A stretch of DNA of 64,000 nt from an uncultured Bacteroidota bacterium (GCA_963814475.1 CAWFDA010000046.1:666940-730939); one strand, 5' to 3'; numbered from the stretch's first letter, positions 8,985-41,425 are shown. A program made the numbers and translations. The notes: generated by a model from the sequence alone, not told the origin.

Positions 8985-9029
8985 TTTTTTAGGTTTTTAG
9001 TTTGTTCTTTTTAAGGATTGTTTGAAATA

Positions 9030-9470
9030 GTGGCAAGTGTTAAGTGACATGTGACAAGTGTTTAGTGACATGTGTTTAGTGACAAGTGTTTAGTGACAAG
9101 TGACAAGTGTTTAGTGACAAGTATTCAGTGACCAGTATTCAGTGACCAGTATTTCAGTGACCAGTGTTCAGTGACCAGTGTTTTAGTGACCAGTGTTTTG
9201 GTGACCAGTGTTTTAGTGACCAGTGTTACCAGTGTTTTAGTGACCAGTGTTTTGGTGACCAGTGTTTTAGTGACCAGTGTTTTGGTGACCAGTGATTAGT
9301 AACCAGTGTTCAGTGACCAGTATTTTAGTGACCCGGGTTAGTGAACAGGATTTTAGTGACCAGTGTTCAGTATTTAATATTTAATGACCGGAATATATGA
9401 CTAATGGCTAATCTAATTAATGACCCAATGACTAATGACCCAATGACTAATGTCTAATAACAAATTAACC
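9030..9470. repeat. Minisatellite with a ~16 bp unit (GTGACCAGTGTTTTAG) in about 20 copies, followed by AATGACCCAATGACTAATGAC heptad-type repeats.
   Basis: Direct tandem repetition is visible across 9040-9360. ATGACTA / ATGACCC units span 9400-9465. Confidence 0.85.
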
Positions 9471-24027: not shown

Positions 24028-24152
24028 ATTAACTGAATTTGATCGGAATACTATATAATTATAGTAAAGTTAATCAAAAACTTGAAATTACTCATTTTTT
24101 TCTATTTTTGTAATGCAATTTTTTCATTTTCATTTTTTTATCAATTTTTCAC

Positions 24153-24676
24153 ATGCAATTACAACACATTACCACAAAAATTCACGAAATCAGAGGCATG
24201 AAGGTCATGCTCGATCATGATTTGGCAATTCTTTATGAAGTAGAAACAAGGTCGCTTAAGCAGGCTGTGAGAAGAAATTCAGATCGCTTTCCTGAAGATA
24301 TTATGTTTCAACTAACTGAACTAGAAATCGATAGAATGGTATCACAAAATGTGATACCATCTAAAAGCTATTTTGGAGGAGCCAAACCATTTGCTTTCAC
24401 TCAAGAAGGAATTTCAATGCTTTCGAGTGTTTTAAGAAGCAAAAAAGCTATACTCACAAACATTTCTATCATGCGCCTGCCTGCAGCATGGCAGGTGCAT
24501 TTGTAATGATGCGCCAATTTGCACTTTCACATCGCGAATTAACTGAAAAACTCAAGGAAATGGAAACCAAATACGATCAGCATTTTCATACTATCTACGA
24601 AGCTAATGGCTATCTTATGAAAAACGATGAGGAGGACAAGAAACAAAAGAACCGCCGAAGGATTGGGTATAAATGA
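24153..24676 (+). pseudogene. ORF6N-domain protein, copy 1, disrupted by a 20 bp palindromic insertion at 24476-24495.
   Basis: The N-terminus ([13 protein letters not shown]...[11 protein letters not shown]) is 80-90% identical to copy 2. The frame breaks at SIMR|, and the tail ([35 protein letters not shown]) resumes in another frame. Confidence 0.8.
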
Positions 24677-24714
24677 CCAAAATAAAATAATTTAACTTTT
24701 AAAACATTTTTCAC

Positions 24715-25188
24715 ATGCAATTACAACACATCACCACCAAAATTCACGAAATCAGGGGCATGAAGGTCATGCTGGACTATGATCTGGCTGAAATGTATCA
24801 AGTCCCAACAAAAAGTCTCAATCTTAGTGTTAAACGGAATCTAAATCGATTTCCGGATGATTTTATGTTCCAACTTTCTCAAACTGAATGGCAAAGTTTG
24901 AGGTTTCAAAATGAAACCTCAAACAAACGGGGAGGTTCGAGGTATGTGCCATATGCATTTACAGAACAGGGTTTAGCCATGCTTAGTGGGATATTAAATT
25001 CTCCCATTGCTATCGAAGTAAATATCTCCATCATGCGGGCTTTTGTATTCATGCGACAATTTGCTCTTTCTCATCGTGAGTTAACGGAAAAACTCAAGGA
25101 AATGGAAACCAAATACGATCAGCATTTTCATACTATCTACGAAGCTATTGACTATCTTATAAAAAACGATGAGATGGACAAGAAATAA
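24715..25188 (+). CDS. ORF6N-domain protein, copy 2, intact tandem paralog.
   Basis: 157 aa with the full ORF6N N-domain and a conserved C-terminal helix region. Confidence 0.8.
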   Translation: MQLQHITTKIHEIRGMKVMLDYDLAEMYQVPTKSLNLSVKRNLNRFPDDFMFQLSQTEWQSLRFQNETSNKRGGSRYVPYAFTEQGLAMLSGILNSPIAIEVNISIMRAFVFMRQFALSHRELTEKLKEMETKYDQHFHTIYEAIDYLIKNDEMDKK

Positions 25189-25403
25189 AAGAAACGTCGG
25201 AGGATTGGGTTCAAATGACCAATAAATGTGATGGATAAATTACTCCAAAGACGTATTAAAAACCAATATTCAAAACGAAAAATACTTTAAAACTTTTTTT
25301 ACAAAATACAGAACTGAAAATTTAGGATATTTATTCGAGTTACCTGAAAATGCACTGACCAACACTTTAGAAGTTTTCCTAATAATTATGCATAACTAAT
25401 GTG

Positions 25404-28539: not shown

Positions 28540-28725
28540 TTAGAAAAATACATAAAAAAAGGGTCATTGGTCGTTGTCGGTGCGGAAGGGTCATTGAGTC
28601 ATTGGTCATTAGTCTTTGTCGGTGCGGAAGGGTCATTGAGTCATTGGTCGTTAAGTTTGGCGGAAGAGTCATTGGGTCGTTTTAATTGGCGGAAGGGTCA
28701 TTGAGTCATTGCTCTGATAAAAAAA
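28540..28725. repeat. Tandem ~57 bp repeats built from GGGTCATTGAGTCATTGGTC-type units (AGTCATT heptad family).
   Basis: GTCGGTGCGGAAGGGTCATTGAGTCATTGGTC occurs twice, followed by degenerate copies. The same heptad is seen at 9400-9465 in reverse complement and at 35820-35870. Confidence 0.8.
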
Positions 28726-29161: not shown

Positions 29162-30313
29162 TTACAATGTCCCTCGGCGGGCTTGTTCTGCTTCGATGGA
29201 TTCAAACAAAGCTTTAAAGTTTCCTTTCCCGAAGGACTTTGCTCCTTTGCGTTGAATAATTTCAAAGAATAATGTGGGACGATCTTCAACCGGTTTAGTA
29301 AATATTTGTAATAGGTATCCTTCTTCATCACGGTCTACCATAATTCCGAGTTTTTTCAACACTTCCATATCTTCTTCAATGATTCCTACTCTTTCAGCAA
29401 CGGTATCATAGTAGGAACCGGGAACGTAGAGAAATTCTACCCCTCGTTTGCGCATTTCAGCAATAGTTAAAACAATATTATTAGTTGCAACAGCTATATG
29501 TTGACAACCGGGTCCCTTATAAAAATCCAGATATTCTTCGATCTGAGATTTCTTTTTGCCATAGGCAGGTTCATTTATTGGAAATTTGATTCGTCCGTTA
29601 CCATTCGACATCACCTTACTCATAAGCGCAGTGTATTCAGTGGAAATATCTTTGTCATCAAAGGTAACCAAGTTGGCGAATCCCATTATTTCTTCATAGA
29701 ATTTTGCCCATTTGTTCATTCCTCCAAGTTCAACATTACCCACCATGTGATCAACATATTCGAGTCCGGCCGAAACGGGATTATATTCTGATTCCCACTT
29801 AACAAACCCGGGAAGAAAAACTCCATTGTAAGCTTAACGCTCTACAAAAATGTGAAGTGTTTCGCCATAGGTATGAATTCCCGACATCACCACTTTCCCA
29901 TTGTCATCTTCAATGGTTTTTGGTTCCATAAAAGGCTTTGCTCCTCTTTTAACTGTTTCATTAAAAGACTTAGTTGCATCATCCACCCACAAAGCAATAA
30001 CTTTAACACCATCGCCATGCAAACGAATGTGATGAGAAATTTCACTATCAGGATCCATTGGTGTAGTGAGAACAAGTCGAATTTTTCCTTGTTGCAGAAC
30101 ATATGAAGTACGATCACGACTACCGGTTTCTAATCCCCGATAAGCAAGTGATTGAAACCCAAAAGCTGTTTTGTAATAATGAGCTGCTTGCTTCGCATTG
30201 CCTACATACAATTCCACATAGTCGGTACCATTGATAGGCAAAAAATCTTGTGCTTTTTCAAACACTTTATCTCCGGAGTAGGAGTAATTTTGTACTGTTT
30301 TAAGATTGTCCAT
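29162..30313 (-). pseudogene. hppD: 4-hydroxyphenylpyruvate dioxygenase split into two ORFs by a frameshift near 29746-29834.
   Basis: The N-terminal half (29834-30313) and C-terminal half (29162-29746) are both typical VOC-fold HPPD sequences ending ...[16 protein letters not shown]. Confidence 0.75.
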
Positions 30314-30342
30314 TTAATTAAGATTTTCAGTTACACAAATTA

Positions 30343-31527
30343 TCATCCTTCAACCGCGATGTTATCAGGTTCAAACAACCATGACTTGTAATAATCTTTC
30401 ACCTCAAGTGCCAAAGCTGCATTAGTAATTTTTACAGGATGAAATGGATCAATCATAACGGCAAGTTCATTCGTTTCTTTTTTACCGATACTTCTTTCGA
30501 TTGCCCCCGGATGAGGCCCATGTGGTACACCGGCAGGATGTAAAGTAATTTGTCCTTTTTTGATATTGTTACGGCTCATAAAGTCACCATCAACATAATA
30601 TAACAACTCATCAGAATCGATATTACTGTGGTGGTAAGGAGCTGGGATTGCATCAGGATGGTAATCGTACAGTCTGGGAACAAAGGAACATATTACGAAA
30701 TTATGTCCCTGAAAATTCTGATGTATCGGAGGTGGCATGTGAATGCGACCAGTGAGAGGTTCGAAGTTAAAAATAGAAAATGCATAAGGATAATGATATC
30801 CATCCCATCCTACAACATCAAATGGATGAGTTCCATAAATATAAGGATAGATTAGCCCTTTTTTCTTAATCAATATTTTAAAATCACCTCTTTCATCGTG
30901 TGTTTCGAGTCCTTCAGGAAGTCTGAAATCACGTTCACAAAATGGTGAATGCTCCAGCATTTGCCCATATTCATTTCTGTACCTTGGAGGTGTTACCACA
31001 GGACTGAATGATTCAATAATCAGCAGCCGATTTTCACTAGTTTCAAAATCAATTTTATAGACAGTACCTCTTGGAATAACAAGATAATCACCATAACCAA
31101 AATCCAGATTCCCAAAGCAGGTATGTAACGTGCCATTTCCCTGATGAACAAAAATTAATTCATCGGCATCGGCATTTTTAAAGAAATAGTTACCGGTACC
31201 TTTTTTTGAAGCCGATAAACCAATATGCATATCATCATTGACAAAAAGCGTTGTTCTGCTTTCAAGATAATCATCCTTCAAAGGCATTTCAAATCCCTGA
31301 AAACTGAAAGCTCTCAAATTATCTTCAATGGCTATTTCCGGCCTAACGGAATAGGACTTGCCTGCTTCTTTAACGATTGTTGGAGGATAAAGATGATAAA
31401 CAAGTGAAGATACACCGGAAAACCCTTCGGTTCCACAAAGTTCTTCATGGTATAAAGACCCATCCGGCTTACGAAAAACCACGTGTCTTTTTTGGGGAAT
31501 TTTCCCAAGTCGATGATAAACAGACAT
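30343..31527 (-). CDS. hmgA: Homogentisate 1,2-dioxygenase.
   Basis: 394 aa cupin-fold dioxygenase with His/Glu metal ligands, adjacent to hppD. Confidence 0.8.
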   Translation of the reverse strand: MSVYHRLGKIPQKRHVVFRKPDGSLYHEELCGTEGFSGVSSLVYHLYPPTIVKEAGKSYSVRPEIAIEDNLRAFSFQGFEMPLKDDYLESRTTLFVNDDMHIGLSASKKGTGNYFFKNADADELIFVHQGNGTLHTCFGNLDFGYGDYLVIPRGTVYKIDFETSENRLLIIESFSPVVTPPRYRNEYGQMLEHSPFCERDFRLPEGLETHDERGDFKILIKKKGLIYPYIYGTHPFDVVGWDGYHYPYAFSIFNFEPLTGRIHMPPPIHQNFQGHNFVICSFVPRLYDYHPDAIPAPYHHSNIDSDELLYYVDGDFMSRNNIKKGQITLHPAGVPHGPHPGAIERSIGKKETNELAVMIDPFHPVKITNAALALEVKDYYKSWLFEPDNIAVEG

Positions 31528-31640
31528 GACATATAAATTTTATGCAAATAACCCCATGAATTGGGTATATTCTTATGATTTCTGTCATCTTTCATTAACT
31601 TTACGGACAATAAAAAAGTGATTTCAGTCATATAAAAGCT

Positions 31641-32318
31641 ATGTGTGGAAGATTCTCCTTAACCAAAGAGGAACTCGAGATTGAGAAGCGATTCAATGCG
31701 AAGTTTTATTCCAATGATTTGGTAAAACGATACAACGTTGCGCCCAGTCAGTTAGCTTTGGTGATGACCGACGAAAAGCCTCATGAACTGCAACACTACA
31801 AATGGGGATTAATTCCATCATGGGCTAAGGAGGCTTCAATTGGGTACAAAATGATTAATGCAAAATCGGAAACCATTTTTGAAAAGCCCTCTTTTCGCAA
31901 CTTGATAAAAAACAAAAGGTGTTTGGTAATTGCTGATGGATTTTACGAATGGAAGCCATTAACCAAAAAGCAGAAACAACCTTATCGTATTGGATTAAAA
32001 GGTGATGATTTGTTTGCTTTTGCAGGGTTATGGGATTCGTGGACCGACAAGGGTACCGGAGAAATAATAAACTCTTTCACGATTATTACAACAAATGCTA
32101 ATGATCTAGTTTCTCCAATTCATGATCGAATGCCGGTAATTCTTGAGCGGGAGGATGAAAAAAAATGGATTGGACACAACATTTCTCACGATGAAATTAT
32201 TAAGATGCTTACCTCCTATCCAAAAGAAAAAATGAAAGCTTACCCGGTTTCAGATAAGGTAAATTCACCACGCAATGATTCAGATGAAATGATTGTTGAA
32301 AAAATAATAACAACTTAA
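31641..32318 (+). CDS. yedK: SOS-response-associated peptidase (SRAP/YedK), an abasic-site DNA-protein crosslinking protein.
   Basis: Begins MCGRF, with the catalytic Cys2 of the SRAP family. The ORF is 225 aa, typical for the family. Confidence 0.8.
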   Translation: MCGRFSLTKEELEIEKRFNAKFYSNDLVKRYNVAPSQLALVMTDEKPHELQHYKWGLIPSWAKEASIGYKMINAKSETIFEKPSFRNLIKNKRCLVIADGFYEWKPLTKKQKQPYRIGLKGDDLFAFAGLWDSWTDKGTGEIINSFTIITTNANDLVSPIHDRMPVILEREDEKKWIGHNISHDEIIKMLTSYPKEKMKAYPVSDKVNSPRNDSDEMIVEKIITT

Positions 32319-33918: not shown

Positions 33919-34019
33919 GTTTAGGAGTGATCATTGAAAAATAACAACATTCCCCGTAAATATGGGCTCTTGGTTTTTTTAATATCGAACTTTGGAAGAA
34001 TAGTGGTCTGAATTTTTTC

Positions 34020-34090
34020 TACATAATTGTTTAATCGTACTCGTCTGACGCGCCGGCCCGTGGCATGGGACGAGTATGCAGGAATTTTAC
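34020..34090. repeat. Dispersed copy, in inverted orientation, of the hairpin core from the 1190-2290 array.
   Basis: CGTACTCGTCTGACGCGCCGGCCCGTGGCATGGGACGAGTATG is approximately the reverse complement of CTCGTCCCACGCC..GGCC.GCGC.TCAGACGAGTACG. Confidence 0.75.
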
Positions 34091-34604
34091 TTTGAAGAAG
34101 GAACCAGAGGATCATCCATTTAAACAAGTAATTTCATTAAAATCAAAAAAAAATCTTTTATCTCGTCTGAAGTCTGCCTACCGTATCATAAAATTTAACA
34201 TTAAACTCCAATGAAAATTTCAGATTTCTAAAGTTATTTTGAATATTGTACAGCAGGCAGTTGATGCCCGATGGGCGTGGTTCCGATATTTATCGGACGA
34301 GTATGGGAGGATTTTTTTATTTTAGAAGTACCTTCTGCGAGAAATATGAAGGTTGGGTTGAAGCAACTAAATTAATCAGGCTTTTATTACTTCACCACAT
34401 ATTTATATTCCTGTCGAATAAAAACATCCAGTCAGTTAAATATCTATGACCTGACATAGAAAAATTAATTTTGAAAATGTTAAAAATAATTCCTGAAAGT
34501 GTATAAATAATAATTAATTTTGAATAAACATCTTTACATTTGAATAGTTTCATCACAACTATCAGAATTTATGAATTTGTATTCCTGCAAGGCATATTTT
34601 AAGC

Positions 34605-34800
34605 CAAAAAGCTACCCGGCAACCTTTGGGCATGGTTATTCCTCAGGCGTGATGTTTCTCACATCCTCGTCCCAAACCACAGGCCAGCGCGTCAGAGGAC
34701 GAGAGTATGGGGCATGGTTATTCCTCAGGCGTGATGTTTCTCACATCCTCGTCCCAAACCACAGGCCAGCGCGTCAGACGAGGACGAGAGTATGGGGAAA
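34605..34800. repeat. Two tandem ~62 bp copies of a variant hairpin element (CTCGTCCCAAACCACAGGCCAGCGCGTCAGACGAG).
   Basis: The direct repeat GGCATGGTTATTCCTCAGGCGTGATGTTTCTCACATCCTCGTCCCAAACCACAGGCCAGCGCGTCAGA(C)GAGGACGAGAGTATGGGG occurs twice. Confidence 0.8.
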
Positions 34801-34899
34801 ATTTAAAGAGAAGTCTTAAAATTTATATGATTGATATTTAATCAATTACATCATAATGTAGAGAGATTATTGACAAATGACTAAAAAAATACGACATTT

Positions 34900-35352
34900 G
34901 TGTTAAATAAATTTGTGATGAAAAAGCATGAAAATATTTTTAACGAAAGTGTAGTTGCTTACGGCACTCATTCCAACAATTCTATTTATTCAATTATGGA
35001 TACCATCCGCAGTGGTATTGTTTTTTCAAAATTCAATAAAGTACTTAACAGCTTTCCTTTCAGTTTATCCGATTGGTCTTGGTTTTTAGGAATGTCGGAA
35101 CGCACTATGCAACGCTACCGCAAAGAGAAAAAAACCTTTGATAAACTGCAGTCTGAAAAAATTTTAAACATTTACATACTTTACAACCGCGGTGTGGAGG
35201 TATTTGGAGGTGCTGAAAATTTCAACACATGGCTCGATACTCCCAACACAGCTCTTGGAGGTGAAGTGCCCAAAAAACTTTTGGATAACAATTTCGGTAT
35301 AGAGTTTCTCAACGATACGTTAACGCGTATTGAGCATGGCGTTTCTGCATGA
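34900..35352 (+). CDS. Xre/MbcA/ParS-type antitoxin (DUF2384 toxin-binding domain).
   Basis: C-terminal WLDTPNTALGGEVPKKLL...LTRIEHGVSA signature. It overlaps the RES gene by 4 nt (ATGA). Confidence 0.7.
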   Translation: MLNKFVMKKHENIFNESVVAYGTHSNNSIYSIMDTIRSGIVFSKFNKVLNSFPFSLSDWSWFLGMSERTMQRYRKEKKTFDKLQSEKILNIYILYNRGVEVFGGAENFNTWLDTPNTALGGEVPKKLLDNNFGIEFLNDTLTRIEHGVSA

Positions 35353-35828
35353 TTGTATTCAGGTTATGTCGTGAAGTTTATAGCAGTGACCTGAATGGAA
35401 AAGGTGCTGAAAAAAGTGGAGGACGGTGGAACAGCAAGGGCATTCCTATGCTTTACACTTCTGAAACAAGAGCCTTGTGTCTGGCTGAAATGATGGTAAA
35501 TCTTCCATTAAATTTGATTCCTAAGGATTTCTCAATGGTTTCAATTTTGGTGCCGGATGAACTGCAGACACACACAATAAAAATCGAACAATTACCATCC
35601 GATTGGAAAATGTTTCCTCACTCCTATTCTACCCAGAAATTAGGAGATGATTTTATTAATGAAGGAAAATTTATTGCTCTCAAAGTACCCTCAGTAGTTG
35701 TGCCCTTAGAGTATAATGTCATAATCAACCCAAGACATACAGATATGGGAAAGGTGAAAATTATTGAAGTGAAAAAATTTTCAATTGATGAGCGACTAAT
35801 TGCGAAGAGTGGGGAAAAAAGTCATTGA
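35349..35828 (+). CDS. RES-domain toxin (MbcT/ParT-like NAD+-targeting toxin).
   Basis: GGRWNSKGIPMLYTSETRALCLAEMMV matches the RES N-terminal motif. The 159 aa ORF is translationally coupled to the antitoxin. Confidence 0.75.
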   Translation: MIVFRLCREVYSSDLNGKGAEKSGGRWNSKGIPMLYTSETRALCLAEMMVNLPLNLIPKDFSMVSILVPDELQTHTIKIEQLPSDWKMFPHSYSTQKLGDDFINEGKFIALKVPSVVVPLEYNVIINPRHTDMGKVKIIEVKKFSIDERLIAKSGEKSH

Positions 35829-35872
35829 GTCATTAAGTCATTGAGTCATTAAGTCATTGAACTTTGGTTAGG
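35820..35872. repeat. AGTCATTGAGTCATTAAGTCATT heptad repeat.
   Basis: The tandem (A/G)GTCATT units are visible directly. Confidence 0.8.
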
Positions 35873-35929
35873 TTGAAAAGAATGAAGATTGATCGGGACG
35901 AGGAAAAAAATTGAAGATAGTAGATGTAC

Positions 35930-36135
35930 TTTTATACTTTCAATTTTCAGTTTTCAATTCGCGTTGACAGCGGTAGAAGCATTATATTCGGGTCGAAGGG
36001 AAAACTGAAATTTGAAAACTGAAATTTGAAAAGTTTTGGTAGGTTGGGACAAAGTTAAAACTGAAAAGCAGGCCCGAATCTATAGAGGCGGGCCTGTCCG
36101 AATCTATAGAGGCGGGCTTGCCCGATAAAGAAGAC
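35930..36135. repeat. MITE-like element with TTTTCAGTTTTCAATT / AATTGAAAACTGAAA inverted termini, followed by a 2x direct repeat GCCCGAATCTATAGAGGCGGGC.
   Basis: TTCAATTTTCAGTTTTCAATTCGCG...GGGTCGAAGGGAAAACTGAAATTTGAAAACTGAAA. Related copies lie at 2290-2405 and 37260-37500. Confidence 0.7.
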
Positions 36136-36168
36136 AAGTCAGAAGTAATGAAAAGATTTTTTTTCTAA

Positions 36169-37220
36169 TTACAGCCCCTCTTTTACAGCAGGAATCACTT
36201 TCGAACCAATTAAATTTATAGACTCCTTCAACTGATCATGAGATAATCCAGCATTTTCCATTTGAAAAGTAAGTCTAGAAATTCCACCCAGTGCTTTACT
36301 ATGACGAAGTATTTTTTCCGCCACTTCATCAGGATCACCCACTATTAAAGCACCTCTAGCACCGGTTTGTGAATCAAAATGAGGACGTGTTACAGGCGGC
36401 CATCCCCGTTCTTTGCCAATTCGTGTAAATGTTTCGGCATAACCCGGGATAATAATTTTCAACAGCTTCTTTAGAATTTGCAGCAACGTACCCAAGAGAA
36501 TGGAATCCCACTTTGAGTTTGTCTGGGGAGTGACCGGCTAATTGCCGGCTTGTCTGTATACATCAACCAGCGGACCGAAAACGATGTGTTTCTCCACCAA
36601 TAATTGCAATCATTAAAGGTAGTCCCAATATTCCAGCTCTGACAAATGATGCCGGTGTACCTCCTACTCCAAGCCAAATTGGCAATGGATCTTGCAGTGG
36701 TCGTGGATAAATATTGTTGTTTTACAAGGCAGCACGAAATTTACCTGACCAGGTAACGATTCATTATCTCTTATTTTCAACAAGGAGCTCTAATTTTTCA
36801 GCAAAATAGTTCATCGTAGTCTTTAGTATTCAAAGCCAAACAAGTGGAAATGCTTCAATAAATGAACCACTTCCAACCACCATTTCAGCACGACCCTGAG
36901 AAATAAGATCGAGTGTTGCAAAATTTTGAAAGACTCTTACCGGATCGGCCGCACTCAATACTGTAACCGCGCTAGTTAGTCTGATTTCGTCTTTGTTCTG
37001 GCTGCTGCAGCTGCAAGAATAATGGTTGGTGCCGAATCAAGAAATTCCTTTCGGTGATGTTCACCAATACCAAACACATCTAGGCCGACCTGATCAGCAC
37101 ATTCAATCCGTTCTAATAAGTGAGCTAGTGCATCACTTTGCTCCGGTTTTTAGCCGTCAGCTTGAATCGACGGTGACTTGCAGAAGCAAAACTATCTATT
37201 CCTATTTCCATTTTAATTAA
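36169..37220 (-). pseudogene. LLM-class flavin-dependent oxidoreductase (luciferase-like monooxygenase), heavily frameshifted.
   Basis: The C-terminal 108 aa ORF (...GALIVGDPDEVAEKILRHSKALGGISRLTFQ...) is typical LLM. Upstream fragments are scattered across frames to about 37220. Confidence 0.6.
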
Positions 37221-37259: not shown

Positions 37260-37500
37260 ACTTCAGTTTTAAAATTTTCAGCTTTATATTTGGGTCGAAG
37301 GGAAAACTGAAGAGTTAAAATTGAAAAGTTAAAAGTACGAATTATCTTCAATTTTATTTTTTCAGTTTTCAATTTTCAATTCGCGATGAGGGCGAATTGA
37401 AGCATAAATTCAGATCAAAGCGAAAATTGAAAAGCCTGCCCGACCCCCGATAGCCTTTGCGATGATTTGGGCGGGTTAAAATTGAAAAGTACAAATAAAC
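37260..37500. repeat. Two adjacent MITE-like elements of the same TTTTCAGTTTTCAATT family.
   Basis: TTGGGTCGAAGGGAAAACTGAAG... and TTTTTTCAGTTTTCAATTTTCAATTCGCGATGAGGGCG...AAAATTGAAAAG. Confidence 0.7.
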
Positions 37501-37514
37501 TTACTTTCAAATTT

Positions 37515-38645
37515 TCATTCACTCACAGAAACCGGTTCCTTCACAGAAACCTTAAGTGATCCAACAAATTCATCAAAAAGGTATCTTGAATCATCGGGTC
37601 CGGGAGCTGACTCGGGATGGTACTGAACGGAAAAAGCTTTTTTGTTTTTCACTCTTATTCCCTCAATAGAATGATCGTTCAGATTCACATGTGTTACTTC
37701 AATCACATCAGATTTTTCCACATCTTCACGACTAATAGCAAATCCATGGTTTTGAGAGGTAACTTCGGAATGACCGATAATCATATTTTTTACCGGATGA
37801 TTAATTCCTCTATGACCGTTGAACATTTTATAAGTTGAAATCCCACAGGCTTCGGCGAGTAATTGATGGCCTAGGCAAATGCCAAAAACAGGTTTATCGG
37901 CAGCCAGAATATCTTTCACCGTTTGAACAACATCCGGCATAACCGCAGGATCACCAGGGCCATTAGAAATTAAGAAACCATCGGGCTCCCAGGCATTCAT
38001 CACCTTGAAGGATGCGTTGTAAGGAAATACCTGAACATAGCATCCTCTATCTGAAAGGCAACGGAGGGTATTAGTTTTGACACCTTCATCCATCACAGCA
38101 ACTTTTAGAGGAGCCGATGGATCGCCAAAGAAATACGGTTTGGCAGTAGAAACAGTCGATGAAAGCTCGAGTCCGGCCATAGAAGGCACTTTTGCGAGTA
38201 TTTCCTTCAGTTTATCTGTATTTAATTCATCGGAAGAAATGATTGCATTCATTACGCCTTTATCTCTGATATGGCGCACTAACGCTCTGGTGTCGATATC
38301 TGAGATGGCAACCATATTTTGCTCAATAAAATAGTCGTTTAAAGAGCTATCGGCGCTTTTGCGGGAATAGTGCTGACTAAAGTTCCGACAAATGAAACCG
38401 GCAATTTTAATAGAACTTGATTCCGACTCATCAAATTTAATTCCGTAGTTGCCGATGTGCACGTTGGTGGCGATGAGCAACTGACCTTCGTAAGAGGGGT
38501 CGGTAAAGACTTCCTGGTAGCCGGTCATTCCGGTATTAAAACATATTTCGCCTGTAGCGGTTCCTACTTTTCCAGCTGATTTACCGTAAAAAATAGTTCC
38601 ATCCTGGAGTAAGAGTATTGCCGGGAATTTAGGGGTATATTTCAT
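37515..38645 (-). CDS. carA: Carbamoyl-phosphate synthase small (glutamine amidotransferase) subunit.
   Basis: 376 aa with the CarA N-domain and class-I GATase motifs (GICLGHQ, ...HPE). Confidence 0.85.
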   Translation of the reverse strand: MKYTPKFPAILLLQDGTIFYGKSAGKVGTATGEICFNTGMTGYQEVFTDPSYEGQLLIATNVHIGNYGIKFDESESSSIKIAGFICRNFSQHYSRKSADSSLNDYFIEQNMVAISDIDTRALVRHIRDKGVMNAIISSDELNTDKLKEILAKVPSMAGLELSSTVSTAKPYFFGDPSAPLKVAVMDEGVKTNTLRCLSDRGCYVQVFPYNASFKVMNAWEPDGFLISNGPGDPAVMPDVVQTVKDILAADKPVFGICLGHQLLAEACGISTYKMFNGHRGINHPVKNMIIGHSEVTSQNHGFAISREDVEKSDVIEVTHVNLNDHSIEGIRVKNKKAFSVQYHPESAPGPDDSRYLFDEFVGSLKVSVKEPVSVSE

Positions 38646-38741: not shown

Positions 38742-39258
38742 TTATTCGCCCGTTTCTTCTTCAGTATCAGCCTTTTTAGCTTTCGCCTTTTTAGCAACCG
38801 GAGCTTCAGCAGCACCATCGCCATCGGCTTTCTTAGTTTTACCACGACGCGTAGTCTTCGCTTTCTTAGCAGGAGCAGAAGTTTCCTTCACCATCAACGT
38901 GTTATAATCAACCAACTCCATCATGCACATTTCAGCAGCATCACCAAACGATTACCTGTTTTAATGATACGGGTATATCCACCCGGACGCTCGCCGATTG
39001 TACTGGCAACATCTTTGAACAATTCTGAAACAGCTTCCTTATTTTGAAGGAAACTAAAGACAGTACGACGAGAGTGCGTAGAATCCGTTTTCGATTTAGT
39101 GATTAATGGTTCTACATACTTTGCGCAAGTGCTTTAGCTTTTGCAACCGTAGTGTTGATTCTTTTATGCAGAATCAATGAAGAAGCCATATTCGAGAGCA
39201 TCGCATCTCTGTGACTGGACGTTCTTCCTAAATGATTTACTTTTTTACCGTGACGCAT
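38742..39258 (-). pseudogene. rplQ: 50S ribosomal protein L17 with two apparent frameshifts and an A/K-rich C-terminal extension.
   Basis: [21 protein letters not shown]... from the ATG at 39258. The frame breaks near KALAQ (39150) and near GNRL (38940). The C-terminus is ORF 38742-38930. Confidence 0.7.
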
Positions 39259-39309
39259 TTTATTTAATCTTTTCTATCCTATTTGGATTTACAGGCATTC
39301 GTTTAATTA

Positions 39310-40305
39310 TCAGTCTTTTTCAAGTTTGTATTTGGAAACATTCATTCCAAAATTCAGGTTCTTACTTCTCACTAGTTCTTCCAATTCAGTAAGTGATTTT
39401 TTACCGAAATTTCTGAATTTAAGAAGGTCATTTTTAGAATAAGAAACCAGGTCTCCAAGAGTTTCAACATCAGCAGCTTTAAGGCAGTTAAGAGCTCGAA
39501 CAGAAAGATCCATATCAACCAATTTAGTTTTCAGCAACTGACGCATGTGAAGTGATGACTCATCGAACTCTTCAGTTGGAGTTTTAGGTTTGCTTTCGAG
39601 AGTGATTTTCTCATCAGAGAACAACATGAAGTGATGAATCAGAATTTCAGCTGCTTCTTTCAAGGGCATCTTTTGGATGAATAGATCCATCGGTAGCGAT
39701 TTCAAGAACCAGTTTTTCATAATCGGTCTTTCTGTTCAACCCTGTAGTTTTCTACGTTGTAACGAACGTTTCTGATTGGGGTGAAAATAGAATCGATAGC
39801 AATTGTTCCGATAGGATAGCTATTCGATTTATTCTCTTCAGCAGGAACATAACCACGACCTTTATCGATAGTGATATCAATTTGAATTTTAACACTCGTT
39901 TCCATGTTACAGATAACCAAATCAGGATTCAGAACCTGGAAAGCAGAGGTATGCTTAGCGATATCACCGGCAGTAAATTGATTTTTGCCGTTGATAGTTA
40001 CCTGAACTTTTTCAGAGTCGGTTGATTCAATTTGCTTTTTAAAGCGAACCTGCTTCAGGTTCAGAATGATTTCAGTAACGTCTTCAACAACACCCTTGAT
40101 AGTAGAAAACTCATGATCAACACCTGAAATTTTCACGGTGGTGATAGCATGACCTTCAAGAGATGAAAGGAGAATTCTCCTTAGCGCATTTCCGATAGTG
40201 ATTCCATAACCGGGTTCAAGTGGACGGAACTCAAATGTACCAAGATGTTCAGTTGGACTGAAGCATGATCACTTTATCCGGTCTTTGAAACGCTAATATT
40301 GCCAT
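39310..40305 (-). pseudogene. rpoA: DNA-directed RNA polymerase alpha subunit, split by at least 3 frameshifts.
   Basis: [17 protein letters not shown] at 40305 is followed by a frame break. ORFs 39717-40136 and 39310-39720 carry the rest (...[25 protein letters not shown]...). Confidence 0.8.
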
Positions 40306-40379
40306 TTTTATATCCTTCTTTTTTTAGTTTTTTCTTAATAATTAATCACTTCCTTCCGGGGAAGGGCACTTACAACTGA

Positions 40380-40985
40380 TTACTTAGAGTACAACTCGAC
40401 AATCAGTTGTTCTTTAATATTTTCGGTAATGTCGGCACGGGCAGGAGCACTTACGAACTTACCTTCCATTTTGCTGTCATCCCACTCTAACCAAGAATAA
40501 CGGGTGGTTCTAGATCTCAAAGATATCACCAATAACTTGTGAAGATTTTGATTTTTCTCTAACACCAACCTGATCACCTGCTTTCAGAGTATAAGAAGGA
40601 ATATTTACCACTTTACCATTCACAATAATGTGACGGTGAGAAACCAGCTGACGGGCAGCTGAACGGGTTGGAGCGATACCTAAACGATAAACCACATTAT
40701 CTAAACGTGATTCAATTAACTGAAGCAAGTTTTCACCGGTGATACCTTCTTTTCTAGAAGCACGGTCGAAAGTTTTCGCAAACTGACGCTCGAGGATTCC
40801 ATAGGTGTATTTCACCTTTTGTTTTTCCTTCAGCTGAGTAGCATATTCAGAAAGCTTTGAACGCTTCTTAGATTGTCCGTGCTGTCCCGGAGGATAGTTT
40901 CTCTTCTCGTAGTTCTTATCAGGTCCGTAAATCGGCTCTCTGAACTTTCTTGCAATCTTGGTCTTTGGTCCTATATACCTGGCCA
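40380..40985 (-). CDS. rpsD: 30S ribosomal protein S4, with an apparent frameshift near the C-terminus (~40520-40570).
   Basis: [15 protein letters not shown]... The C-terminal 40 aa (...[17 protein letters not shown]...) lie in an overlapping ORF in another frame. Confidence 0.75.
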
Positions 40986-41039
40986 TGAAATCTTGTTTTA
41001 TTAAACTTAAATAAATGCTTTGATATACTATTAAATTCT

Positions 41040-41425
41040 TCTGCGTTTTGGAGGGCGGCAACCGTTGTGTGGAATCGGAGTGATATCCACAATTTCGCTT
41101 ACTTCAAGACCTGCAGTTGTGCAAGTGTTCTGATTGCAGATTCACGTCCTGAACCTGGTCCTTTCACAAACACTTTCACTTTTCTCATACCTGCATCAAA
41201 GGCAACTTTAGAGCAATCCTGAGCAGCCAACTGAGCAGCATAAGGAGTGTTTTTCTTAGATCCTTTGAATCCCATTTTACCTGCAGAAGCCCAGGATACT
41301 ACCTGTCCGGTAGTATTGGTGATGCTAATGATGATATTGTTAAATGTAGCGTTGATATGAGCTTCGCCAACAGACTCCACTTTTACCACTCTTTTTTTAA
41401 CGGTAACTTTTGCTGTTTTTGCCAT
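41040..41425 (-). CDS. rpsK: 30S ribosomal protein S11, with an apparent frameshift about 20 codons before the end.
   Basis: 108 aa ORF. The conserved tail ...[16 protein letters not shown] is present downstream in a different frame (41040-41100). Confidence 0.75.

Follow-up and report, generated by a model that had tools for sequence, protein, structure and literature searches.

Here, we describe a gene pair in a window of 64,000 nucleotides from an uncultured Bacteroidota bacterium (GCA_963814475.1, CAWFDA010000046.1:666940-730939) that, judged by its sequence, is an intact and ordinary RES-Xre toxin-antitoxin (TA) module and that likely constitutes a functional, chromosomally resident type II RES-Xre TA operon (Table 1). 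The pair is most likely an old, vertically inherited neighbour of carA and the ribosomal-protein gene cluster in this Bacteroidia clade, and the repeats and the decaying luciferase-like monooxygenase (LLM) gene most likely represent later events in the spacers flanking it. An initial annotation of this DNA had proposed an intact RES-Xre module of the ParT/ParS or MbcT/MbcA type, on which HMM scores, catalytic residues, predicted fold and signs of purifying selection now agree. It had further regarded the module as an addiction cassette that stabilises a mobile or variable island, a proposal that did not hold: the TA genes are constant at carA, while the flanks are variable, mobility genes are lacking between the S8 peptidase gene and carA, and the GC content is normal.

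Table 1. Features in and around the RES-Xre gene pair; positions are counted from the first nucleotide of the window.
Feature	Position	Strand	Evidence
Repeat-filled spacer, ~880 bp, from the S8 peptidase gene to the TA promoter region	33919..34797	.	Repeat searches, gaps in relatives
Conserved upstream block ATTGACAAATGAC-N11-CGACATTTGTGT, candidate promoter/operator	34869..34903	+	Conservation in five lineages
Xre-family antitoxin, 144 aa	34918..35352	+	PF20432, PF09722, NF049845, 8GUG_B, dN/dS
RES-domain toxin, 159 aa	35349..35828	+	PF08808, NF049844, PDB matches, AF2 model, dN/dS
Octamer array AGTCATTG/A x5, start of the repeat element	35820..35860	+	TRF period 8, 5.1 copies
Left copy of AT-rich hairpin (MITE-like) repeat, followed by 24-nt GC-rich tandem (36072-36125)	35861..36140	.	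Repeat searches
LLM gene, apparent pseudogene	36169..37211	-	Orthologous to the intact 343-aa gene of L001
Right copies of AT-rich hairpin repeat, abutting the carA stop codon	37225..37514	.	Direct repeat of the left copy

ORF calling on the window yielded two ORFs of 150 and 159 aa on the same strand between positions 34900 and 35828, with the antitoxin gene preceding the toxin gene. The two overlap by 4 nt in an ATGA at 35349-35352, which combines the TGA stop codon of the antitoxin gene (35350-35352) with the ATG of the toxin gene (35349-35351), as the initial annotation had noted for this antitoxin and a RES-domain toxin of 159 aa, and all relatives have an identical architecture. The proteins had been assigned to the Pfam RES and DUF2384 families, and in a HMMER comparison PF08808 and PF09722 both scored above their cut-offs. 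The toxin reaches 83.5 bits with PF08808 (RES; cut-off 23.2), whereas the antitoxin combines an N-terminal Xre-like HTH (PF20432, 32.6 bits, cut-off 25.8) with a C-terminal toxin-binding domain (PF09722, 47.6 bits, cut-off 24.5). The NCBIfam models dedicated to the RES/Xre system gave 116 bits for the antitoxin (NF049845, cut-off 90) and 181.1 bits for the toxin (NF049844, cut-off 110); all cut-offs are curated, those of Pfam being the gathering scores, and matches this strong are well outside what chance would produce. Close homologues of the toxin bear the automatic NCBI name 'RES family NAD+ phosphorylase', and an identical toxin is recorded in the protein collection from one 731-kb contig. 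Neither protein matches any of the PADLOC defence-system models at E<=0.01.

In the annotation of the source genome, the antitoxin starts at GTG 34900 and is 150 aa long, and the same length was given in the initial annotation. While the assignment to the DUF2384 Xre-like antitoxins stands, the length probably does not. GTG 34900 falls within a non-coding block conserved in five lineages, its equivalent in L001 is directly followed by a TAA stop codon, the clustered antitoxin homologues are all 144 aa long, and tblastn alignments of the antitoxin start at 34918. Together, these observations indicate that the antitoxin is most likely encoded at 34918-35352, with ATG 34918 as its true start.

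Residues R26 (in GGRWN), E47, S115 (in VPS), R5 and Y36 of the toxin do not vary among 52 homologues with identities down to 50%, and an alignment with VPA0770, ParT and Pseudomonas putida Res shows no variation at R26, E47, S115 or Y36; N123 and N127 are likewise listed as conserved. Based on motif and spacing, the triad and the Arg/Tyr of the NAD pocket would correspond to R47/E69/S126 and R27/Y58 of MbcT, which requires R27, R47 and Y58 for its toxicity (PMC6436930). The alignment of the 52 sequences served to build a confident AlphaFold2 model (pLDDT 91.9, pTM 0.85), which was compared with the PDB using Foldseek. The top ten matches were all RES toxins, followed by ADP-ribosyltransferases of the diphtheria-toxin type, and the best match was ParT (TM 0.86, rmsd 2.1 Å), as compared with TM values of 0.79-0.87 for P. 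putida Res, 0.79-0.81 for VPA0770, 0.72/0.64 for MbcT and 0.51 for NatT. Identity to the three solved RES toxins amounts to 34-37% in MAFFT alignments and 28-36% in the Foldseek structural alignments, with phmmer E-values of 1e-14 to 1e-22 against the PDB. The first strand of the model begins at residue 2, without an N-terminal flap, and its PDB matches place the toxin among the short RES toxins that lack a flap. At the other end of the protein, the octamer array (35820-35860) contributes the final three codons along with the stop codon, so that the toxin is 5 residues longer than its 154-aa relatives, which end before the array. The same junction between toxin gene and array is present in L013, and the 5-residue tail has a low pLDDT (59) and lies outside the folded domain. 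The idea that the repeat-derived tail marks a decaying toxin gene was rejected in view of the conservation of residues and the dN/dS values.

Pairwise Nei-Gojobori estimates of dN/dS, covering dS values of 0.3-1.5 for the two TA genes, are 0.06-0.11 for xre and 0.11-0.16 for res, with 0.01-0.11 for the flanking housekeeping genes. Between the two lineages that have the repeat-derived tail in common, the value for the toxin is 0.11. These values indicate that purifying selection has kept both genes functional across the whole divergence. As a separate observation, divergence within the operon is greater for the toxin half than for the antitoxin half, at synonymous and non-synonymous sites alike. 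In addition, the flanking genes pair L005 with L013, while the toxin pairs the window with L013, and the sliding identity profile of the operon is a mosaic. We mention as a side observation that this pattern can be read as recombination within the operon.

Upstream of the antitoxin gene lies a block of 35 bp with the consensus ATTGACAAATG[A/T]C-N11-CGACATTTGTGT, in which 23 of the 24 specified positions are invariant among the five lineages; the variable one is the 12th position of the left half (A in four lineages, T in L001). The block is conserved even though the sequence further upstream differs, as do the upstream genes, which are others in two of the lineages. It contains the inverted repeat ACAAATG (34873-34879) and CATTTGT (34895-34901), with 15 nt between the arms, which reach 9 nt in L001. 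A scan for sigma-70 promoters and terminators found no more sites than in shuffled sequences and none at the block, but the promoters of Bacteroidota are of a different type (-33/-7) that departs from the sigma-70 consensus. The right half of the block presumably resembles the Bacteroidota -7 element TAnnTTTG, and we infer that the block could match the -33/-7 type. The Xre-RES complex of P. putida represses its own promoter via an imperfect inverted repeat (PMC12204516), and by analogy the 35-bp block is likely the promoter/operator of the operon.

The relatives fall, together with the window, into five lineages, which were compiled from exact look-ups of near homologues and from cluster members. 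The window itself has hgmA pointing left and the SRAP and S8 peptidase genes pointing right, then 1000 bp before xre, and 1687 bp with repeats and the frameshifted LLM gene between res and carA. L013/L014 (toxin 91% identical) have 130 bp before xre and a single repeat element in the 209 bp between res and carA, and L005-L012 (toxin 69%) have 140 bp and 79 bp at the same places; the left flank is as in the window in L013 and, where the contigs reach it, in L005-L012. In L095 (toxin 62-64%), the left flank consists of the genes for an H+-PPase and a Por_Secre_tail protein, both pointing right, and res and carA are 30 bp apart. The same left flank is present in L001 and L002, which belong with L003 and L004 to a lineage with a 78% identical toxin, an intact LLM gene (343 aa), DoxX and HxlR between res and carA, and only the start of carA at the contig end (92% over 66 aa). 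Hence, rightward xre and res followed by leftward carA and the leftward ribosomal/rpoA cluster are constant in all five lineages, and the window, L013/L014 and L005-L012 have the entire order from hgmA to carA in common. The variable parts are the left flank (S8 peptidase versus H+-PPase/Por_Secre_tail) and the spacer between res and carA. Flanking proteins are 78-97% identical among the window, L013 and L005 lineages, with dS of about 1, so that these represent distinct species-level lineages rather than strains. Searches of the spacers of the window for remnants of a DoxX, HxlR or Por_Secre_tail gene gave no match at E<=1e-3.

The initial annotation had named conservation of the pair in all relatives, together with a lack of toxicity, as an argument against its own proposal, and this conservation was found in five of the five recovered lineages, which keep the pair at carA but were mostly reached via the TA proteins and hence contain TA genes by construction. 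Sampling independent of the TA genes came only from the JADKJB01 metagenome-assembled genome (MAG), found via its S8 peptidase, and from the 90% carA cluster. L095 is contig JADKJB010000032 of this MAG, the S8 gene of which lies on another contig and is followed by unrelated genes. A GTDB synteny search seeded with the S8 peptidase recovered only three loci with the HgmA-SRAP-S8 block, and TA genes follow S8 in none of the three; in the closest of these MAGs, the TA genes adjoin carA on another contig. From these HgmA-SRAP-S8 loci without TA genes after S8, it follows that rearrangement has affected the left flank. Every member of the 90% carA cluster with enough flanking sequence has the TA genes. 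Two contigs are too short to judge, one of which ends inside the same repeat family as found in the window. More distant homologues (52-58% identity) are located in another context, parC-Xre-RES-ribH.

With regard to the 'repeat island' of the initial annotation, the repeats do exist, but they are not confined to this locus, as members of the same families are found elsewhere in the window, at 1159-2420, 9419-9448 and 28562-28710. The spacer at 33919-34797 contains a hairpin unit (34030-34079) and an 82-nt tandem (34628-34797), whereas the gap between S8 and the TA genes is only 130-140 bp in the relatives; these GC-rich units belong to the same family as a tandem array of about 13 copies at 1159-2290. 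Downstream, what had been described as AGTCATT heptads has a period of 8 according to TRF, with 5 copies of the octamers AGTCATTG/AGTCATTA at 35820-35860. Octamers of the GTCATTGA type recur at 9419-9448 and 28562-28710, and the TTTCAATTTTCAG family, kin of the left hairpin repeat, recurs at 2347-2417. The left and right hairpin copies are direct repeats with 82% identity (35978-36034 versus 37280-37336). The RNA fold of the left region (35861-36140) has a z-score of -3.8, and this repeat may serve the operon as a downstream terminator or insulator. An Rfam scan of the whole window returned no family at the gathering score; the repeats thus do not represent a described RNA. In terms of sequence, the setting is that of a repeat-rich genome and not of a repeat island.

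The LLM gene had been called dead, and it does look so. Compared with the intact LLM gene of L001, the product of which matches PF00296, it has 81-82.5% nucleotide identity, and the protein identity is very high where the two are in frame; there are 18 indel events and about 8-13 lasting frame changes, but no stop codons due to substitution. When genes of the window were checked against L005, nine 1-nt indels, eight of them insertions, were found in rplQ, rpoA, rpsD and rpsK, which lie 1.2-3.6 kb away, with three frameshifts in rpoA, and an in-frame TAA was found in hppD. As a cell cannot survive three frameshifts in rpoA, the assembly must contain indel errors. The frameshift density is 13-17 per kb in the LLM gene, about 3.6 per kb in rplQ, rpoA, rpsD and rpsK, and 0 in hgmA, SRAP, S8, xre, res and carA (about 5.5 kb). 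The LLM gene is probably a real pseudogene, although part of its 'death' may be assembly error, as in the nearby essential genes. A functional linkage between the TA genes and LLM was rejected: LLM homologues (67-78% identity) were located at 80 metagenome loci, none of which has RES, Xre or carA nearby. Several of these loci have HxlR or DoxX nearby, and since LLM homologues associate with HxlR and DoxX and never with RES-Xre, LLM is part of an independent HxlR-DoxX-LLM module that lies between res and carA by chance. When aligned, the single repeat element of L013 proves to be a hybrid between the window's left copy and its right copy. This is consistent with deletion of the LLM gene by recombination between the direct repeat copies, which would have led from a window-like state to that of L013.

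How the pair came to be at this site and what it does can be explained in ways other than as an ordinary resident TA operon. That it serves as an addiction cassette, which by post-segregational killing stabilises a mobile or variable island at about 34.0-37.5 kb, is a reading with some precedent, as the RES-Xre modules KnaAT (PMC10896132) and SlvTA (PMC7301842) are reported to stabilise plasmids. The spacers on both sides of the pair and its left neighbour, an S8 peptidase or the H+-PPase/Por_Secre_tail genes, do vary between relatives, and the distant homologues in the parC-Xre-RES-ribH context also count in favour of this reading. However, across the five lineages it is the TA genes that are constant and the supposed island that varies. 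The ORFs between the S8 peptidase gene and carA include no integrase, transposase or other mobility gene, the GC content is unremarkable without a compositional shift, and the flanking repeats belong to genome-wide families. The sole remaining cargo is an apparently dead gene, and this gene stems from a separate HxlR-DoxX-LLM module, which lacks RES-Xre at all 80 other loci. We therefore regard the island reading as very unlikely and already largely refuted. It is harder still to believe that the module is an inactive relic, in which the genes look intact and yet encode no active toxin. It is true that a repeat insertion has taken the place of the toxin gene's original 3' end and that the neighbourhood shows gene decay, but all catalytic and NAD-pocket residues are kept, the dN/dS of 0.11 was obtained from precisely the two lineages with the repeat-derived tail, the added tail is outside the folded domain, and the promoter block is intact, making this reading extremely improbable.

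The most probable of these alternatives, although we consider it unlikely, is that the pair has been domesticated as a regulatory RES-Xre system akin to NatRT or GndRX, which would tune NAD pools, persistence or the response to stress and would have a toxin with little or no toxicity when expressed alone. Precedents are NatRT in the core genome of Pseudomonas aeruginosa (PMC11535050) and the non-toxic GndRX (PMC12457610), and the pair has long kept a single chromosomal site next to core genes while both of its genes were under strong purifying selection, although a selfish chromosomal TA system would show stable vertical inheritance as well. The hppD, hgmA and SRAP neighbours in three lineages recall the link of GndRX to homogentisate output and genotoxic stress, but this adjacency is missing in L095 and L001, that is in two of the five lineages, and is therefore probably a coincidence. 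Furthermore, the toxin of 159 aa lacks the flap that defines NatT and GndR and is, by TM value (0.51 versus 0.86), closer to ParT than to NatT. One might go further and speculate that in this Bacteroidia clade the pair acts as a long-term, near-core chromosomal regulator. It would correspond to NatRT/GndRX but without a flap, would adjust growth to NAD+ status or genotoxic stress and might be linked to SRAP, hppD and hgmA, with a toxin half diversified by recombination and an antitoxin and operator that are nearly fixed; we would assign this elaborated version a low probability.

For the functional type II TA operon that we favour, we propose the following mechanism. A promoter some 25-50 bp before ATG 34918 would drive co-transcription of both genes, and translation of the antitoxin and the toxin would be coupled through the ATGA. 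As expected from other members of the family, a helix of the C-terminal domain of the 144-aa antitoxin would bind the toxin and block its NAD+ pocket, while the HTH of the antitoxin, probably within the TA complex, would repress the operon at ACAAATG-N15-CATTTGT. Once freed, the 159-aa toxin would, again by what is known for the family, consume NAD+ and thereby cause growth arrest. Neutralisation and NAD+ chemistry in the family are described in PMC6436930, PMC11535050 and PMC12457610, and autorepression at a palindrome in PMC12204516. The chemistry could consist either of NAD+ degradation by an NADase or phosphorylase activity, as for MbcT and P. putida Res, or of the ADP-ribosylation of a target, as for ParT and Prs. 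The reaction of the toxin cannot be read from its sequence, as its identity to the nearest characterised relatives is no higher than 32-37% and these do not all have the same chemistry; as a rough estimate, we would give NAD+ degradation a slightly better than even chance and ADP-ribosylation a smaller but substantial one. Some RES-Xre pairs are not classically toxic, such as GndRX (PMC12457610) and NatT, which needs NatR (PMC11535050).

Beyond annotation, the pair itself is of little importance, since an uncharacterised member joins a well-described TA family. It does provide a new representative from the Bacteroidota, whereas the characterised RES-Xre systems cited here all come from other phyla, and the upstream block offers a candidate operator for Xre-RES autoregulation outside the Proteobacteria. 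The series of loci, from an intact LLM-DoxX-HxlR set through a broken LLM gene between repeats and a single repeat to nothing at all, illustrates how the region around a stable TA system is reshaped by gene decay and by repeats between the genes. Lastly, the frameshifts in rpoA and the ribosomal-protein genes are a warning that pseudogene calls in the window need read-level confirmation.

Among the known systems, ParST from Sphingobium sp. YBL2 (PDB 6D0H/6D0I) is the closest in structure. The toxin matches ParT with a phmmer E-value of 5.7e-22 and 36% identity in the MAFFT alignment (32-36% overall), and both systems combine a short, flap-less RES toxin of about 160 aa with an Xre-type antitoxin encoded upstream. 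ParT ADP-ribosylates Prs, the phosphoribosyl pyrophosphate synthetase, and its host belongs to the Alphaproteobacteria, in contrast to the Bacteroidota host studied here. In sequence, both proteins are most similar to VPA0770/VPA0769 from Vibrio parahaemolyticus (PDB 8GUG), with an E-value of 9.6e-23 and 37% identity for VPA0770 and the toxin and of 1.6e-5 for VPA0769 (8GUG_B) and the antitoxin; the sizes are also alike (156 and 150 aa). VPA0770 has been described as NAD+-depleting (PMC12204516), but elsewhere as a predicted ADP-ribosyltransferase (PMC12457610). P. putida Res (PDB 6GW6/9R35), a predicted NADase, has the same RES fold and matches the toxin at an E-value of about 1e-14 with 34% identity. 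[quoted passage not shown] The NAD+ phosphorylases MbcT, of MbcT/MbcA from Mycobacterium tuberculosis, and NatT, of NatT/NatR from P. aeruginosa, belong to the same superfamily, with an R-E-S triad and an Arg/Tyr pocket (PMC6436930, PMC11535050). MbcT is 17% identical to the toxin and is not matched by phmmer at E<=0.01, and the N-terminal flap of NatT (250-aa target) and GndR, a segment of about 45 aa that contacts the antitoxin, is absent from the toxin. In its location, the pair resembles NatRT, as NatRT is a resident of the P. aeruginosa core genome (PMC11535050) and the pair in the window is likewise resident.

The two halves of the RES-Xre toxin-antitoxin operon have diverged to very different degrees. 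When the operon of the window was compared with the related loci L005, L013, L001 and L095, the toxin half was far more diverged than the antitoxin half: in those lineages where the antitoxin was called intact, amino acid identities were 60-91% for the toxin versus 86-92% for the antitoxin. The dS values were likewise higher in the toxin half, and the toxin tree was in conflict with the flanking genes. Across these loci the identity profile of the operon is a mosaic, which suggests that recombination has taken place within it. Between the toxin gene and carA, L013 contains a single repeat element (L013 5511-5718), and this is a hybrid of the two copies that flank the frameshifted luciferase-like monooxygenase (LLM) gene in the window. 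Such a hybrid is consistent with a deletion of the LLM gene mediated by the repeats.

Compared with close relatives, the essential genes rplQ, rpoA, rpsD and rpsK of the window are broken by single-nucleotide indels, mostly insertions, and hppD contains an in-frame stop codon. These lesions point to an assembly with indel errors, probably a long-read MAG, and any pseudogene call in the window is thereby weakened. In the JADKJB01 MAG, a Por_Secre_tail gene, the Xre gene and, downstream, several ribosomal protein genes are also fragmented (L095 3708-5319, 5571-6001 and beyond), which looks like long-read indel error and not biology.

Features of the window (positions in nt)
Feature	Position	Description
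Hairpin tandem array	1159-2290	~13 units, periods alternating between 80 and 93 nt
14-15-nt tandem units	9028-9450	~400 bp, intergenic; variants of AGTGACCAGTGTTTT / AGTGACAAGTGTTT
Octamers following these units	9419-9448	GGTCATTG-type
Direct-repeat pair 1	within 24135-25222	217 nt, 71% identity, spacing ~550 nt
Direct-repeat pair 2	within 24135-25222	184 nt, 89% identity, spacing ~550 nt
42-nt tandem units	28562-28710	each with a GGTCATTGAGTCATT end
hppD, hgmA, SRAP	29165-32318	
hppD	29165-30313	TAA at codon 160
Hairpin repeats upstream of operon	34030-34079, 34628-34797	
Xre-RES operon	34918-35828	
Segments compared with L013 element	35818-36030, 37470-37518	
LLM gene	36169-37211 (-)	
rplQ	within 38748-41425	3 indels
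rpoA	40252, 39732, 39663	3 indels
rpsD	within 38748-41425	1 indel
rpsK	within 38748-41425	2 indels

Every unit of the hairpin tandem array carries a hairpin (ACTCGTCCCAC..GGCCAGCGCTTCAGACGAGTACGA), and the array forms one family with the hairpin repeats upstream of the operon. It had no match in Rfam, and a reading as a CRISPR array was rejected because the 'spacers' are themselves repeated. Other repeats occur elsewhere in the window: the 42-nt units are akin to the array of octamers that supplies the stop codon of the RES toxin gene, and the two direct-repeat pairs, which lie around an ORF (24715-25188), look like a local duplication.

In three lineages, hppD and hgmA, both in the opposite orientation to the operon, and SRAP, in the orientation of the operon, are located directly upstream of the S8 peptidase, Xre and RES genes (L005 4997-8265 and the window). 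As this adjacency is missing from L095 and L001, it is probably coincidental; among known RES-Xre pairs, GndRX of Legionella modulates homogentisate output during genotoxic stress (PMC12457610).
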